From positions 3,680,001-3,744,000 of the forward strand of contig CBDBDQ010000005.1 in assembly GCA_965203905.1 (NCBI GenBank): a stretch of DNA of 64,000 nucleotides. The letters are read 5' to 3'. The stretch comes from Spirochaetia bacterium (GTDB lineage: Bacteria; Spirochaetota; Spirochaetia; SZUA-6; Bin103). This document shows, piece by piece, positions 14,698 through 20,810 of the stretch (positions within the stretch are counted from its first letter, which is position 1; each line of letters starts with the position of its first letter). The translations under genes were made by a program, and so were the position numbers. Below the pieces are notes generated by a model. That model saw nothing but the letters and a program-made list of their open reading frames with translations. It made no database searches and was not told the DNA's origin.

Positions 14698-16623
14698 TCA
14701 TTCGACGTAATAGAACTGCTCCGGCTGGAAGCTCCCGGGCGAACGCGCGATGGCGCTGTAGGGCGCCCGCTCCGGTACGTTGCGCATCTTTGCGTTGACC
14801 ACCCCGATGATCGGCGGCGGCGGGCTCAGCGTGCCGATGTCCCACAGGTGCTCCACCTTGAGGCGCAGAATGTCCTTGAACAGCTCGTACTGCTTCTCGG
14901 TATCGACGGTCAGCTTGATCTCCTCGTACAGCGCAATGGTCTGCTTGACGTAGTCGGGCGGCTCTTCGCCGCGCTCGCCGCCGCTCTCGTACCAGTGCTG
15001 CCACGCCGGCGCCCACAGCACCTGCCCGCCGGTGGGTACGTAATAGCGCGGCCAGGTCAGCGGCATCATGGCGCCGCTGCCGCCCCACATGCTCACGTCC
15101 ATGTCGTTGCTCGAGTAGCGCTCCTGCCACAGGGAGCGTTCGATCACCTTCATGTTGGTCTTGACGCCGACCGCCTCCCAGTATTCCCGGGTCAGCTCGG
15201 CGAGGTCCGCGAAGTTGTCGGTGATCTCCAGGGTGAGGCTGAACTCCTCGCCGCTGAGGCCGAGCCGGAAGCCCTTGCCGTCGCGGGCGCTCAGCCCCAT
15301 CTCGTCGAGCAGCGCGTTGGCCTTGTCGGGGGAGTACTCCACGTAAGCGGTGGCCAGCTCGGGCAGGTGGAACGGCGACTCGGGAAACGGTTGCGCCTGG
15401 GACGGAATGCCGGCCAGGCCGCCGTACACCAGCTCGTTGATGTCGTTGCGGTTGAGCGCGTAGGACATCGCCTTGCGGAAGCGCGCGTCACTCACCACGG
15501 CGCGCTTGTCGGGGTCCCTGTTGGACAGGTTGATGCTGATGATGCCGTCCTGCTCCCGGTCCTGGATGTAGGTCAGGGTGCGGTAGCCGCCGCGTTCCTC
15601 GTTCTCCTTGAACAGGGTGAAGTTGGTCGGGCTCAGATGGCGGAACTGGAAGTCCAGCTCGCCGGCCGACGCTTTCAGGTTGATCACCTCGCGGTCGGTC
15701 ACCAGCTCGAAGGTGACCCGGTCGATGTAGGGAAGCTGGCGCCCTTCGGTGTCCACCCACCAGAAGTAGGGGTTGCGCTCCATCACCAGGCGCGTGGAAG
15801 CGGGATCGTTGGTCGCTGTCCAGGCGCTCAGGGAGGGATCGCCGGGCCTGTAGATCCGGCCGCCGCCGAGGTGCGGCCCGATAAGGTTGAGCCAGGATTC
15901 GACGCCGGCTTCCTTGACCTTCCCGTCCAGCTCGTCGGCGTCGGCGAAGTCGGGGTGGAACTGCCGCAGGAAATGCGACGGCAGGATGAAGTTGAAGCCC
16001 TGCGAGGCGCCCAGGAATGCCGTGAACAGGCCGTACGGATTCTTGAAGCGGAACCGCACCGTGTAATCGTCCAGCTTGTCGATCGCCACCGCTTCGCCGC
16101 CGACCGTCAGCCACCCCCAGGGCCGCGGGGTGATCTCTGTGTTGGTGAAGATATTGTCGTACCACCAGGTGAGGTCCTCCGCCGTGAAATCGTCGCCGTC
16201 CGACCAGCGGGTGCCGGGGCGCAGGTGGAACACGAACTCGCGCCCGCCGTCACTCACGTCGAAGCTGGTCGCCAGGTTGGGGACGATCGCGCTGACGTCG
16301 GGGGTGAAGCGCACCAGGCGTTGCGACATCAGGCGCTTGACGTTGGAGCCGTCCGCCGGACCGCGCCAGGCGCGGCGCAGGGTGCCGCCGTAACGGCCCA
16401 GCTCGTCGCGCGGGGTGATCACCAGTGGCTCGTCCGGCAGCCGCTCGGCGAGAGGCGGCAGGTCGCCGGACGCGACCAGGGCCGCCAGTGCCGGCGCCTC
16501 CATCACGCTGGCGTCGGCGGCGGTGGGCTCCGCCGCGGCGGGCTGTTCCGACTCGCCGCCGGCCCAGGCGCCCGCCGCAGACAGCAGCGCCAGCGCGGCG
16601 ATCGATGAGAGTGTTTGGTACAC
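14698..16623 (-). CDS. ABC transporter substrate-binding protein, family 5
   Basis: Signal peptide, LPPLAERLPDEPLV, GTRWSDG and RNPYFWWVD..G.QLPYID; GTG start with GAGGAGG RBS. Confidence 0.92.
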   Translation of the reverse strand: MYQTLSSIAALALLSAAGAWAGGESEQPAAAEPTAADASVMEAPALAALVASGDLPPLAERLPDEPLVITPRDELGRYGGTLRRAWRGPADGSNVKRLMSQRLVRFTPDVSAIVPNLATSFDVSDGGREFVFHLRPGTRWSDGDDFTAEDLTWWYDNIFTNTEITPRPWGWLTVGGEAVAIDKLDDYTVRFRFKNPYGLFTAFLGASQGFNFILPSHFLRQFHPDFADADELDGKVKEAGVESWLNLIGPHLGGGRIYRPGDPSLSAWTATNDPASTRLVMERNPYFWWVDTEGRQLPYIDRVTFELVTDREVINLKASAGELDFQFRHLSPTNFTLFKENEERGGYRTLTYIQDREQDGIISINLSNRDPDKRAVVSDARFRKAMSYALNRNDINELVYGGLAGIPSQAQPFPESPFHLPELATAYVEYSPDKANALLDEMGLSARDGKGFRLGLSGEEFSLTLEITDNFADLAELTREYWEAVGVKTNMKVIERSLWQERYSSNDMDVSMWGGSGAMMPLTWPRYYVPTGGQVLWAPAWQHWYESGGERGEEPPDYVKQTIALYEEIKLTVDTEKQYELFKDILRLKVEHLWDIGTLSPPPPIIGVVNAKMRNVPERAPYSAIARSPGSFQPEQFYYVE

Positions 16624-16662
16624 GATAACCTCCTCGTGGGAGTGCGGATGATAGTAGCGCTC

Positions 16663-16691
16663 AGAATAGCAGACCTCTGGTGCCCTGTACA
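16663..16691 (-). promoter_or_regulatory. Putative sigma70 promoter of the SBP operon
   Basis: Minus strand TGTACA-17bp-TATTCT with extended -10 TGn. Confidence 0.45.
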
Positions 16692-16766
16692 CGATTCCGG
16701 TTGATCGGGGTGCATTCCGTCACTGTGGTAGCGGTCAGGCAGCCTCGAGCTGGGTCTGGGTGGATT

Positions 16767-16950
16767 GGCGACCACGTTTCTTGCAGGCCCCCTCGACTGC
16801 CCCGCTGCCGATCGGCAGACCGCACGACCGATACAGCGGGTAGTCCATGCGCTGCTGGTTGGCCGTGAAGTAGTTGATCTCGCCCTGGAGGTCGTAGCAC
16901 TGCTGCTTGCTGTAGCGCCCACTGGCGTGCGATTCCTGCAGTTCCTTGAT
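16767..16950 (-). pseudogene. ISKra4/UPF0236-type transposase C-terminal fragment
   Basis: Minus strand INYFTANQQRMDYPLYRSCGLPIGSGAVEGACK. Confidence 0.8.
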
Positions 16951-17003
16951 TTACGGCGGCCACGCACCCCTGGTGCAGCAGGCTGCGCCATCACAGCGCA
17001 TCG

Positions 17004-17400
17004 AAGGTCATCGTCACCGGCGCCTGCGGCGGTATCGGTGAGGCGATCGCGCGCGCCTTCGCCGGCGCCGGCGCGGCGACATCCGCGCCGCGGAGCTGGC
17101 ACACCTGGCCACGGTGCTCACTGGGCAGGGTGCGACGGTGTACCACGAAGTGGTCGACGTGACCGAAGACGCGGCGGTGCAGGCGTTCTGCCGGTCGGCC
17201 GCTGGCGCTCTCGACGTGGTCAATCAGTTCGTCAACACCGTGGGCGTCGTCGACAACATGGGCGACGTCGTGGACCTGGCGCCGGAGGTGTGGGTGTCGG
17301 CCGTCTCGTTGAAGACGTGGCGGGAGGTCTTTGCCGTGAACGTCGAGGCGGCTCTGACGGCATCGCAGCAGGCGGCGGTGCGGCAGATGTCCCGGCCGGT
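17004..17400 (+). pseudogene. Frameshifted, truncated SDR oxidoreductase
   Basis: KVIVTGACGGIGEAIARAF, then VDVTEDAAVQAF...WREVFAVNV in another frame; no catalytic YxxxK. Confidence 0.7.
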
Positions 17401-17633
17401 GCTGCCGGCTGACGATCCAAAAAATCCCAGAAATTCGCAAGAAAAACACTTGACGCATTCTGACGCGCTCATGACGGCCCTCTACGGGCCGTAGCGGCGC
17501 TTCCGACTTTCCAGAGAACACTTCGCGCCCGCTGGCTCGACAGCGCCCTGCTACGCCCGTCCTGAGCCATCTCCGACGCCTGTCCGAGACCTGGAAGTTC
17601 GTGGCATTTTCAATTCAGTGGTATATTTACGCC

Positions 17634-18932
17634 ATGACGAACGTGACCGAAGCAGCCTCCGAAGAGCTCCTCTCCACGGTCGCCGTGCTCCCCGACCAGG
17701 TGCTGCTGGAGCGGACCAGAATGCTCGCCCGCCACGAGCAGGCGCTGCAGCTCAGCGTCCTCGACCACCTGCGCGAAATCGAGGCCCGGCGCCTGTACCT
17801 GCGCCTCGGCTACTCCAGCTTGTTCGACTACACCGTGCGCGAGTTGCACTATACCGAGGCAGCCGCGTGGCGGCGTATCAAGGCCATGCGCCTGTGCCGC
17901 GAGACCCGCGGCGTCCGCGCGTGGCTGCAGGACGGCTCGCTGAACCTGAGCAACGCCGCCCTGTTGCAGAACTCGTTCGAGCGCTGGGACCGTAGCGCAG
18001 GCGGACGGACCGCCACCGGATCGCCGGGAGCCGGCACCAACGCCGCGCCGCGTGCCGGCTCGGCTCCATCCGCGACGCCGGGCGAGGCGCAGGGTGCGCC
18101 ATCGCCGGTGCTGGATGCGCACGCCCGGCAGCGGCTGGTGGAGCAGGCGGTGGGCAAGAGCACGCGGCAGGTGCAGCAGATGCTGGCGGAGGTGGATCCC
18201 GAGGCGGCGGCGCCGGCCGAGCGGCTGCGCGCGCTGGGGGACGGGCGCTGGGAGCTGAGGGCGGTGATCGACGCCGAGTGCCAGCGTGGACTGCAGCAGT
18301 TGCGGGAGCTGCTGTCGCACGTGGATCCGCACCTGACGGTCGGGCAACTCGTCGGGCGGCTGGTGCGGGAGGGAGTGGAGCGCTACGACCCGAGCCGGCC
18401 GCCGCGCCGGAAGCGGAAGTCAGACTCTGCGGGTGGCGAGCGTCCGTCCGGGACAGCGGGGCGGGAGACGGCAGATCGCGTCGCGGCGGCGGCGGTGTCC
18501 CCTTCGGCGGCGAAGCCGCGCGTGGCAGCCGGCGATTCGACTTCGGAGCGGAGCACGGGGGGCGCAGGATCGGCGGAGCCGACTTCGGCGGCGAAGTCCC
18601 GCGTGGCAACCGGTAGTTCGACACCGGAACGGAGGACCGGCGGCGCAGGGGAGCCGACTTCGGTGGAGAAGTCCGCCAGATCGTCGGGCAGATCGATTCC
18701 GGCTGCGGTGAAACGAGAGGTTTGGCGGCGCGACCAGGGCTGCTGCACCTTCGTCGACCGGGACAGCGGGCGGCGCTGCGGCTCACGCTTCTGCCTCGAG
18801 ATGGACCACATCGTTCCGGTCGCGGTGGGCGGCGGCGCGGAGCCGGGGAACCTGGTCTTGCGCTGCGCGGCTCACCACCTTTACCGCCACCAGCGCCGGC
18901 AGCGCTCCGCACCGCGAGACTCGGTGACGTGA
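17634..18932 (+). CDS. HNH endonuclease with a DUF222-like helical N-terminal region
   Basis: LGYSSLFDY...AAWRRI N-terminus; IPAAVKREVWRRDQGCC...C...LEMDHIVP...GG...NL...C..HH; TGnTATATT 6 bp before the ATG. Confidence 0.88.
   Translation: MTNVTEAASEELLSTVAVLPDQVLLERTRMLARHEQALQLSVLDHLREIEARRLYLRLGYSSLFDYTVRELHYTEAAAWRRIKAMRLCRETRGVRAWLQDGSLNLSNAALLQNSFERWDRSAGGRTATGSPGAGTNAAPRAGSAPSATPGEAQGAPSPVLDAHARQRLVEQAVGKSTRQVQQMLAEVDPEAAAPAERLRALGDGRWELRAVIDAECQRGLQQLRELLSHVDPHLTVGQLVGRLVREGVERYDPSRPPRRKRKSDSAGGERPSGTAGRETADRVAAAAVSPSAAKPRVAAGDSTSERSTGGAGSAEPTSAAKSRVATGSSTPERRTGGAGEPTSVEKSARSSGRSIPAAVKREVWRRDQGCCTFVDRDSGRRCGSRFCLEMDHIVPVAVGGGAEPGNLVLRCAAHHLYRHQRRQRSAPRDSVT
18504..18675 (+). repeat. 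Intragenic ~75-81-bp tandem repeats in the HNH linker
   Basis: Units begin TCGGCGGCGAAG at 18504 and 18585, with a partial third at 18660 (SAAKxRVAxGxSTxER..GGAG..EPT). Confidence 0.7.
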
Positions 18933-18947
18933 GGCAAGGTGCCGCTG

Positions 18948-19172
18948 GGGTGCATTCCGTCAGTGTGGTAGCGGTCAGGCCGCCTCGAGCTGGGTCTGGG
19001 TGGGTCTGGGTGGATTCTGGGGTGGGCGATGAGGGAAGCAGGCTTTCGTAGTCGTCCCAGAAGCGACGACTCATCACCGGGGTAGATGCTTACCACATCA
19101 TCGAATCTCTGGGAGGGGTCTCTATTTCCCGTACCACAGATGCCGCAGGTGCCACAGAGAAAGAATGCACCC
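18948..19172. mobile_element. Internally deleted IS copy (MITE) with both terminal inverted repeats
   Basis: 18947-19016 repeats 16707-16766 (2 mismatches plus a 10-bp duplication); ends in GAATGCACCC; minus strand carries the probable transposase tail VMSRRFWDDY...QLEAA*. Confidence 0.72.
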
Positions 19173-19228
19173 GGTTGATCGCAATGATCGTCGGTTGCGC
19201 TCATCGCGAAGTTGCGTGAGGATTCGTC

Positions 19229-19876
19229 ATGGTGAATATCCCGGTCGCAAAGCCCAAGAGCGGGGTCACGCTGGAAGACTACGGCATCGTCCTGCCTGCC
19301 AAGGTACGGGAGCTGATAGCGTGCGTGCTGCTCTCGGAAGAGGATATACAGCGCAGGGTTGAGGAGCTGGCGAAGGAGATCGGCAGGACCTATGCCGGAG
19401 AAGAAGAGCTGATCCTGCTGCCCATCCTGACCGGCGCGGTGTTCCTGGCCACCGATATCGGCAGGGCCTTGGCCAGAACCAGCTCACTGAACATCAAGTA
19501 CGACCTGACCAAGGCCTCCTCCTACGAGAGCAAGAAGCAACAGGCGGTACAGATTCAACTGGAGCCGGTCGGCGTCCAGGGCAAGAGCGTCCTGCTGCTG
19601 GATGACGTGCTAGACCGCGGCACCACCATGGCCACGCTGCGCGCCAAGCTGCAGGAGTGGGGTGCCAAGGACATCAGGGCGTGTGTGATGTTCAACAAGC
19701 TGCCGAGAGACCCCGATCAGGAGGTGCTGACGCAACGGCGGGCGGCCAGCCCCGAGTTCGTCGGCTTCGAGGTTCCGGTGATCGACGGCCAGAGTCCCTG
19801 GATCGGCGGCTACGGCCTGGACTCCACCAACACCTATCACCTGCGGCACCTGCCCTGCCTGGTCGCGATCAAGTAG
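19229..19876 (+). CDS. Hypoxanthine phosphoribosyltransferase-like type I PRTase
   Basis: LLSEEDIQRRVEELA, ILTGAVFL, VLLLDDVLDRGTT PRPP loop and GYGLD. Confidence 0.82.
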   Translation: MVNIPVAKPKSGVTLEDYGIVLPAKVRELIACVLLSEEDIQRRVEELAKEIGRTYAGEEELILLPILTGAVFLATDIGRALARTSSLNIKYDLTKASSYESKKQQAVQIQLEPVGVQGKSVLLLDDVLDRGTTMATLRAKLQEWGAKDIRACVMFNKLPRDPDQEVLTQRRAASPEFVGFEVPVIDGQSPWIGGYGLDSTNTYHLRHLPCLVAIK

Positions 19877-19883
19877 CGACGGG

Positions 19884-20810
19884 TCACGTCTCGGTGTCCA
19901 CGTACCAGGCGGGGTCGTGCGGCAGGAACTCCTGCGTCGTCCAGGTGAGGTCGCGCGGGATCACCTCGCGATAGATCGGATTGGCGACGCGTACCGGCGT
20001 GTCGCGCGCCACCAGCCCCAGGTCGCGCACGTACCGCAGGTCGTCGGGGCGGATGGTCGTGGTCGTCTCGGTGCCGCTCAGCAGCGGGCCGATCACCCGC
20101 CGCACGCGCTCCTCCTGCAGCTTGTCGGTGAGCTGGTCCAGATGGGTCTCCCGACGCAGGATGATCCGCTCGCGGGCGGAGTGGATCGCCTCGGCGGTGA
20201 TGACCCGGCCGCGGTCGTGCGCCGCCGCGTCGGCGAAGCACGCCTCCTGAGCCAAGGCGTTGACCAGCCACGGCTGGCCGGCGGTCAGCTCCCACACGGC
20301 TTGCAGCGCCACGTCAGCGAACCGCTGCCCGGTCTCCGCGGTGTGCTGCGCGAGCAGATCGCATACGTCCGCTTCCGAAAAGTCGCCGATGCGCAGCGAG
20401 GCGGCCTTGACGTTGAATGCGCTGCCGCCGGTGATCACCTCGCGCACGTCACGGACGCCGCACAGGATCACGCTCTGCGGGAAGCCGCCTGGCCGTTCGT
20501 CGTAGCCGGCGCGCAACTGGCGCAGGACGGCGATCAGCGTGTCGCCGACCAGCGTGTCGATCTCGTCGATCAGCAGCACCGCAGGTGCGGAGTCCGCCTC
20601 CGCCCAGCGCACCAGCACCTCCTGCAGCGCCCCCTCCGGGCCGAACGTCGTCAGGATGCCGGGCCAGAGGGGCGCCAGGGACTCGTCCCCCAGGGTCCTG
20701 CGCGCGCATGCCCCGCTCGACATGCTCGCGCGCGGTCTGGGCGGACTCGACGTTCACGTAGACGCAGCGGCAGGCGCCCTCGGTTCCGCCGTTCAGCAGG
20801 TCGCGCAGCG
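19884..20810 (-). pseudogene. Degraded AAA-like ATPase
   Basis: VYVNVESAQ, LLIDEIDTL, CGVRDVR, TAGQPWLVNAL and ANPIYREVIPR; Walker A missing, frameshift near 20705, C-terminus appears truncated. Confidence 0.75.

Follow-up and report, generated by a model that had tools for sequence, protein, structure and literature searches.

How does an element that has lost its transposase move, and does the one gene that it still carries do anything for it? Both questions are raised by positions 16708-19172 of the window, that is, of the whole stretch of 64,000 nucleotides analysed here (G000:C5:3680001-3744000), which comes from a Spirochaetia bacterium assembly (G000) of 7.99 Mb and 66% G+C. This 2,465-bp segment is a transposase-less derivative of an insertion sequence (IS) of the ISKra4 family, in which the transposase survives as remnants alone and a gene for an HNH nuclease is the single intact open reading frame (ORF). 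We consider it very probable that the segment is a mobile unit which captured its HNH cargo and is mobilised in trans, with a nuclease that may help it to spread; as a transposase-less ISKra4 derivative, the window element itself is firmly explained. Comparisons were made with other species of the genus (G001, G003, G004 and G006) and related Spirochaetia metagenome-assembled genomes (MAGs; G010, G031 and G032), and the empty site was searched for in contigs from four public metagenome runs, placed on window positions 15700-20200. The runs holding window sequence were mostly sponge and coral metagenomes.

Structure of the element and identification of its master IS

The element begins with the end GGGTGCATTCCGTCACTGTGGTA at 16708 and finishes with the inverted copy at 19172; the 23-bp terminal inverted repeats (TIRs) match at 19 of 23 positions and are flanked on both sides by the 9-bp target-site duplication GGTTGATCG. 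A BLAST search of G000 with the element identified an autonomous master IS of 1,558 bp with the same ends (G000:C5:2122481-2124038), located on the same contig at 1.57 Mb from the window unit and flanked by the 9-bp duplication CCAGGATTG. The 468-aa master transposase matched NCBIfam NF033572 over model positions 26-421 of 422 (E 6.5e-71, 239.6 bits, cut-off 205), with only 43.9 bits against the ISLre2 model and a score below the cut-off for Pfam UPF0236, while tblastn found no second full-length copy of this transposase in G000. For the ISKra4 group, the accessible text of PMC3942029 gives lengths of 18-39 bp for the inverted and 8-9 bp for the direct repeats, and both the 23-bp inverted repeats and the perfect 9-bp duplications at the master and three of the composite copies lie within these ranges. 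A second ISKra4-like IS of G000, present in five copies, was also considered as partner and rejected, as its ends differ (GGGTGCGGCTC...).

Mapping onto the master showed that the two arms of the element are differently deleted IS derivatives in direct orientation (Table 1). The left element end matches master positions 1-58 at 94.9%. Of the ISKra4 transposase, the left remnant retains coding sequence for the C-terminal ~70 residues, interrupted by an internal deletion and by a frameshift near 16950. The minus-strand translation of 16735-16992 reads ...QQRMDYPLYRSCGLPIGSGAVEGACKKRGRQSTQTQLEAA up to its stop codon and contains ...RMDYPLYRSCGLPIGSGAVEGACK..., and the peptide is 86.6% identical to the master transposase C-terminus over 67 aa. 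The right arm is a derivative resembling a miniature inverted-repeat transposable element (MITE), with both ends retained, and its inner left-end copy, starting at 18948, matches 16707-16763 at 96.5% over 57 bp. Between the arms lie pieces of two different short-chain dehydrogenase (SDR) genes, followed by the HNH cassette, which has a -35-like TTGACG at 17450-17455 in its leader. The first SDR fragment is 91% identical to an intact SDR at C5:~5009100-5009417, and the SDR remnant scored 25 bits against adh_short, slightly below the cut-off of 26.6.

Much of this structure had been read from the sequence in a first-pass annotation, and its TIRs at 16708 and 19172 with their 9-bp duplication, its pair of differently deleted derivatives in direct orientation, its open 432-aa HNH gene and the full-length ISKra4 copy with the same ends that it proposed to look for were all borne out. 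Other parts required correction: the element had been labelled ISKra4/ISLre2-type, of which the ISKra4 half holds and the ISLre2 half does not; the left remnant was recognised as IS-derived, although its right border, placed at 16950, extends to 16990; and the SDR sequence was correctly seen as broken, but not as the remains of two genes.

The unit transposes as a whole

The HNH-bearing unit is present in six copies on C5 (copies A-F, with A being the window copy), all having identical outer ends and different flanks. An empty site was found in contigs of runs X1 and X16, which belong to two separate studies. Here, window positions 16696 and 19171 are joined directly, skipping 2,474 bases (the 2,465 of the element and 9 of the duplication) with 11 letters fitting both sides, so that a single copy of the duplication is left. 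The evidence consists of one 1,566-bp contig in X1, with 16 differences over 1,160 aligned bases, and one 1,703-bp contig in X16, with 33 differences over 1,343 aligned bases. Both occupied junctions were present in run X15 with zero differences, but X15 does not count as independent, as it may itself be the source sample. Transposition of the entire unit had been suggested earlier, for a MITE-bounded composite, and is borne out: the checks proposed with that suggestion, an empty site and an autonomous IS with the same ends, both succeeded, and the unit recurs at six sites with six different duplications.

Two internally deleted IS copies in direct orientation thus bracket a captured segment of SDR fragments and HNH cassette, and the unit makes 9-bp duplications. 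We propose that its outer inverted repeats are used in trans by the transposase of the single 1,558-bp master. The HNH copies do recombine, as seen from the replacement of a leader between copies and from a 322-bp deletion that removed the equivalent of window 16918-17239 from copies C, D and E (the same deletion joint was seen in X15), and segmental duplication or recombination, instead of transposition, might accordingly be held responsible for the repeats. This explanation is refuted by the six different duplications abutting identical ends and by the precise empty site with its single duplication copy, and we give it practically no credence.

Several copies carry additional changes. Copy F contains a unique 765-bp fragment of a group II intron reverse transcriptase (RT)/maturase (RVT_1 and GIIM domains; C5:6514813-6515577, L020:3114-3878), which replaces the SDR pieces and the HNH leader, with the 9-bp duplication still being perfect. 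In copy B, an ISAzo13-family IS is nested in the MITE arm (C5:2335289-2336596), and in copy C the HNH gene is split at codon 411 by a nested element of ~6 kb (C5:6312230-6318185) that encodes four tyrosine recombinases and a Y2 transposase of the IS91 type. A truncated HNH cassette at C5:3790337-3791961 (copy K) lies 23 bp downstream of a 124-bp mini-derivative of the ISKra4 IS, which lacks a duplication.

Target choice

The sequence next to each insertion was read at positions +17 to +22 outward from the end adjoining the transposase 3′ terminus. The hexamer found there was TTGACA in copies E and F, TTGGCA in copy D and TGTACA in copy A, giving four of seven insertions with at least four of six matches, while the master IS has TCGCTG at this position together with a good -10-like TATTAT at the right spacing. 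By base-composition arithmetic, the probability of a perfect TTGACA at a fixed position is ~1e-4, and therefore two in seven are not a chance result. The unit thus seems inclined to insert with its transposase-3′-side end ~16 bp from a -35-like hexamer. This would fit the ISKra4 group, for which the accessible text of PMC3942029 reports insertion at 13-17 bp from sigmaA promoters.

Origin of the cargo

The DNA between the arms of the unit has its counterpart in a chromosomal locus without IS ends (C5:5003677-5009417, here called the G locus), where an intact SDR gene lies upstream of an HNH cassette of the same subfamily, with a five-copy IS of ~3 kb between them, and where the same short fragment of a second SDR directly precedes the cassette. 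Contig C473 of the congener G003 likewise has an intact SDR, followed directly by the second-SDR fragment and the HNH cassette, again without IS ends. This adjacency of SDR and HNH sequences outside IS ends indicates that the unit captured a block of chromosome. From these sequence comparisons we conclude that the SDR fragments and the HNH cassette were captured together and that the 3′ half of the SDR was deleted, the HNH gene not being a later insertion.

The first-pass annotation had left a later independent insertion of the HNH gene as an option, which would mean a self-mobile HNH element jumping into an already existing pair of IS remnants. The HNH family is indeed multicopy, with 67 loci detected by tblastn in G000, of which 48 are close to full length, and most copies have TIRs and duplications of their own. 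The window copy, however, belongs to a subfamily without recognisable TIRs, and the SDR sequences upstream of it are identical in kind to those at the G locus and in G003, where the IS ends are absent, as expected from the capture of a block. Later insertion is hence very unlikely, and that option is dropped.

The HNH protein

As far as sequence allows recognition, the C-terminal HNH is the sole domain of the 432-aa protein. It was detected with Pfam HNH (E 8e-5, 23.1 bits, cut-off 21.4), as it was in 20 of 20 family members, and residues C371, C382, H392, N406, C411, H414 and H415 are invariant in an alignment of 20 sequences. A sequence-profile search of the PDB gave matches on the HNH region, plus three marginal rows elsewhere (E 0.12-0.92). 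The AlphaFold model, with a mean predicted local distance difference test score (pLDDT) of 63.9, has confident domains at residues 20-122, 158-255 and 353-425 with disordered linkers between them. In Foldseek searches the HNH region resembled McrA, the Gme HNH nickase and Cap5, while the N-terminal fold had no PDB match at E<=0.001 and gave weak ParB/Noc-like rows.

Membership of DUF222 was considered and rejected, since none of the 20 family members matched Pfam DUF222 at E<=1, and hhalign against a true DUF222-HNH protein aligned the HNH domain alone. When residues 1-260 were compared by ESM features, the clusters indicated included one with a DUF222 label (score 0.95), which we take as a lead only. 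RNA-based recognition was also looked for: RNAalifold on 43 leaders gave -3.11 kcal/mol, compared to a mean of -4.57 with shuffled alignment columns (z +0.63), and no Rfam family scored over threshold, with one chance-level ALIL match at E<=1. An RNA-guided mode is therefore unsupported. The protein has no RuvC domain, and the IscB model matches its HNH part at 19.5 bits (cut-off 175).

The HNH gene recurs between the ends of unrelated IS families

The HNH family is restricted to one lineage. It has >1,587 unnamed relatives in the database, matches occurred in 15 of the 18 other genomes examined from the same family but in none of the 12 from other families of the order, and the 80 loci kept from a scan of species representatives all belong to Spirochaetia or Spirochaetales MAGs. 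The main subfamily in G000 forms elements of ~2.0-2.2 kb with sharp borders and the ends CAGGRCYATCCCAYGCTG. Allowing up to two mismatches, this end was found 72 times in G000, with 60 of the matches lying within 700 bp of an HNH locus; 22 of the 23 TIR pairs spaced <5 kb bracket an HNH gene, and the remaining pair brackets a 1,290-bp Rpn-like element. Perfect 9-bp duplications flank seven of the 23 pairs with strict borders and 11 when a 1-bp shift is allowed, five more match at 8/9, and in a displaced control none of the 23 pairs matched at >=7/9 positions. The CAGG-type ends of this subfamily are those of a 2,164-bp ISAs1-family IS, present in four copies in G001. This IS is flanked by a perfect 9-bp duplication, and its ISAs1-family transposase (148 bits, cut-off 70) has a DruA-like N-terminus.

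The ISKra4 family is used a second time in G010. This genome contains eight intact copies and one split copy of an ISKra4-family IS. Its transposase shares 54% identity with that of the G000 master and reaches 214.6 bits against NF033572, and the ends of this IS (GGGCGCACTTCCAATTTGT...) also border the HNH elements of ~1.8 kb in that genome. A search with the end pattern gave 62 matches compared to 0 in the control; 18 of these are in the nine IS copies, and cross-reading of the match lists placed 28 of the 44 others within ~410 bp of an HNH match. The HNH gene of the G010 elements is oriented as the transposase that it replaced, with ~24-37 bp of each end kept, whereas in the window unit it is opposite to the transposase and long IS remnants persist, which argues that the two ISKra4 associations are independent. 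In G031 and G032, ends GGGTCTTCNGG..T.CGTGTGG enclose 11 of the 15 HNH loci, and perfect 8-bp duplications accompany five of these. A 1,339-bp IS with three copies has these same ends, likewise with an 8-bp duplication, and its transposase scores 322 bits against the ISL3 model (cut-off 180). The ISKra4 copies of G031 and G032 were discarded as partners of the GGGTCTTC ends, which were found around the transposase at none of seven loci.

The HNH family is thus the sole ORF between ISKra4 (twice, independently), ISL3 and ISAs1 ends. A tree built from 117 HNH proteins (393 columns) unites each TIR type in a single clade; end type changes 17 times on it, compared to a mean of 58 with shuffled labels, most of the changes being loci without a detected end. 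This implies about four independent TIR associations, each of which was then amplified.

Related cargo was seen in two other elements. The 1,290-bp Rpn-like element with CAGG-type ends (G000:C5:5515052-5516341, L002) has as its sole ORF an Rpn/YhgA-like PD-(D/E)XK protein (Pfam Transposase_31, 58.5 bits); this protein and the HNH family are found together in 15 of the 18 genomes of the same family. Its candidacy as transposase of the CAGG-ended elements was dropped once these ends were found on an ISAs1-family DDE IS, and this 'putative transposase' is more likely another hitch-hiking nuclease cargo. In G004, a 2,230-bp element (G004:C4:674625-676854, L132) has a classical DUF222-HNH gene (Pfam DUF222 E 6.9e-18) as its sole ORF, with ISAs1-type ends and the perfect 9-bp duplication aggggtagc. 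Two elements of the main subfamily (C5:4667874-4672278 and C5:7575718-7580434) contain the same six-copy IS of ~2.6 kb at ~400 bp from their left end, and both keep perfect 9-bp outer duplications, one of them with a 1-bp border shift.

Passenger or helper

The nuclease may have been kept since it helps transposase-less elements to spread or persist. The HNH protein could cut empty or donor sites, with repair then copying the element, which would follow the logic proposed for TnpB and IscB with recognition based on protein. It is not itself the transposase. That role could be argued from its being the only ORF in these elements, and from the presence of ~36 ISAs1-ended HNH elements in a genome without an intact ISAs1 transposase of that type; yet the ends are always those of a resident or related DDE IS, the duplication length tracks the IS family (9 bp for ISKra4 and ISAs1, 8 bp for ISL3), and an HNH nuclease is all that can be recognised in the protein, making this highly improbable.

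A more serious alternative is that the HNH gene is a pure passenger, with an abundant cassette trapped a few times between IS ends and of no benefit to the element. Arbitrary cargo is already known from mobile insertion cassettes, the number of captures is roughly one per TIR system, the window unit and copy F carry SDR and intron RT debris, and the helper role is argued by analogy. On the other side, HNH predominates among the cargo of each of the four TIR systems (28/44 in G010, 60/72 in G000 and 11/15 in G031/G032), and HNH units outnumber the autonomous IS, at 6:1 in G000, at least 16:9 in G010, and 10 TIR pairs to 3 in G031. The ORFs also stay open, with no internal stops in the G000 HNH matches listed, and they look to be under purifying selection: the pairwise ratio of non-synonymous to synonymous substitution rates (dN/dS) among the six composite copies was 0.21-0.70, and the singleton codon changes were 27 synonymous and 18 non-synonymous, where a simple neutral model that ignores transition bias, a simplification that counts against the signal, expects 72.6% non-synonymous (binomial p ~5e-6). 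We therefore regard the pure passenger as rather unlikely. The earlier suggestion that the HNH protein may be a transposon-associated nuclease thus gained circumstantial support from the four TIR systems and from ORFs that appear constrained.

Several observations weigh against a mobile unit with a nuclease as its helper. The selection signal comes from 45 singletons, of which 21 are from copy D, and a similar pattern could result from gene conversion by other HNH copies. The tree suggests ~four independent events, at roughly one capture for each TIR system, and the SDR fragments and the intron RT fragment of copy F are junk resembling accidental capture. Intact transposase of the G001 ISAs1 type is missing from G000, which has fragments only. 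As for the target, copies B and C have no -35-like hexamer at +17 to +22, and a consensus scan called a full promoter at none of the four sites examined. Finally, the other species of the genus yielded no clean empty site, for the window unit or for copy E, because the neighbourhood is rearranged there: in G004 and G006 the right-flank homology begins at 19192 with an unrelated upstream context, and in G001 the left-flank homology breaks at 16698 and is followed by different DNA.

With the nuclease read as a helper, a broader proposal can be made tentatively, which we consider possible but do not favour: the DUF222-like HNH family, perhaps with the DUF222-HNH and Rpn/YhgA-like proteins, might constitute a class of transposon-associated nucleases that repeatedly replaced the transposase between unrelated DDE IS ends and out-multiplied the autonomous IS. 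Such nucleases might be the protein-guided equivalent of TnpB/IscB, or else act as hyperparasites on IS, with nuclease activity driving copying or retention of the transposase-less element.

Relation to known elements

The unit is of a known kind, a transposase-less IS derivative of the ISKra4 family (mobile insertion cassette or composite). Mobile insertion cassettes, of which MIC231 of IS231 is an example, and composite transposons also have IS ends bracketing transposase-less passenger DNA, and the cassettes are likewise moved in trans with the duplication typical of their parent IS. Unlike in such cassettes, the arms of the window unit are differently deleted copies in direct orientation, and the nuclease cargo recurs as the sole cargo across three IS families. 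This recurrent nuclease cargo is a new variant. The literature searched, with ISfinder and subscription journals outside it, contained no description of HNH-only, TIR-bounded derivatives of DDE IS.

Free-standing HNH homing endonucleases share with the HNH family a DNA-binding region joined to an HNH nuclease and the habit of a selfish multicopy gene, but they have a single homing site, while the HNH elements have IS-type TIRs, 8-9-bp duplications and many sites. The REP13E12/DUF222-HNH sequences of mycobacteria are multicopy repeated elements, and like the HNH family they combine a helical N-terminal region with a following HNH domain; they differ in that the HNH family has no Pfam DUF222 match and can be aligned with them over the HNH domain only.

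With the ISKra4 group (p-MULT 4; Guerillot et al. 2014, PMC3942029) the unit shares, as far as the accessible text goes, the transposase family, the inverted repeat length and the 8-9-bp repeats, and four of seven insertions would also fit its insertion near -35 boxes. In that text, extra genes of unknown function are recorded for four ISKra4 elements and a group II intron RT for one; it has no mention of HNH cargo, and the unit differs from the published group in lacking a transposase. TnpB and IscB (OMEGA; IS200/IS605 and IS607) are, like the HNH protein, non-transposase nucleases riding IS of unrelated transposase families, and their transposase-less copies often outnumber the autonomous ones. 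In contrast, the HNH protein has no RuvC domain and no guide-RNA-like structure, and its partner IS belong to DDE families. Non-autonomous ISC elements with IscB only are known from the available text of Kapitonov 2016 (PMC4810608). The resemblance of the unit to TnpB/IscB or ISC elements is by analogy only, as their defining features are absent from it.

Taken alone, the window element is a well-documented transposase-less IS derivative with a master, six insertions and an empty site. Its importance lies in the wider pattern, in which one nuclease family is found with three unrelated DDE IS families and in dozens of intact copies. If the nuclease aids spread, the idea of an accessory nuclease in the style of TnpB/IscB would extend to DDE transposons and to protein-guided nucleases, and it could offer an explanation for long-puzzling multicopy HNH genes, for instance of the DUF222/REP13E12 type. 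The helper question is directly testable, since transposase, ends and nuclease are all defined.

Features and surroundings of the element

Table 1 Features in and next to the window element, and copies of the HNH-bearing unit in G000
Feature	Position	Strand	Length	Remark
-35-like TGTACA and -10-like TATTCT	16686-16691, 16663-16668 (span 16663..16691)	-		adjoining solute-binding-protein gene; no full promoter called by consensus scan
Target-site duplication, left copy (GGTTGATCG)	16699-16707	.	9 bp	single copy in empty-site contigs
Outer TIR, transposase 3′ side	16708-16730	.
Left IS remnant, master positions 1-58 joined to 190-413	16708-16990	-	283 bp
5′ fragment of SDR gene (SDR#1)	16991-17294	+		frameshifted
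Short mid-gene fragment of second SDR-like gene	17306-17395 (about)	+		also adjoins HNH cassette at G locus and in G003
Conserved leader of HNH cassette	17371-17633	+		start of homology to other HNH copies
Intact HNH nuclease gene	17634-18932	+	432 aa	helical N-domain, second domain, low-complexity linker, C-terminal HNH
Spacer after HNH stop codon	18933-18947	.	15 bp	common to copy K, there running on into non-IS DNA
MITE-like IS derivative with both ends, master 1-119 joined to 1454-1558	18948-19172	-	225 bp
Outer TIR, transposase 5′ side	19150-19172	.
Target-site duplication, right copy (GGTTGATCG)	19173-19181	.	9 bp
Copy A	window		2,465 bp	duplication ggttgatcg, 9/9
Copy B	C5:2338993-2335206		3,788 bp	duplication 8/9
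Copy C	C5:6320055-6311917		8,139 bp	duplication cattgcctc, 9/9
Copy D	C5:4838013-4835789		2,225 bp	duplication 8/9
Copy E	C5:5227230-5229446		2,217 bp	duplication 7/9
Copy F	C5:6515721-6513240		2,482 bp	duplication actgtagca, 9/9

The left-flank homology to the congener G001, which stops exactly at 16698, resumes there ~670 bp later at window position ~24300, and the region from 16699 to ~24300, with the element, a phosphoribosyltransferase gene and ATPase/helicase genes, is therefore variable between species. The five-copy IS of G000 (~2.9-3 kb, including C5:1284367-1287000) has ends GGGTGCGGCTCTTTT... and 9-bp duplications, and contains a DruA-like ORF together with a gene for a distant Mutator-like transposase, which shares 31% identity with the ISKra4 master over 155 aa; one of its copies lies inside the G locus, at ~C5:5005538-5008578.

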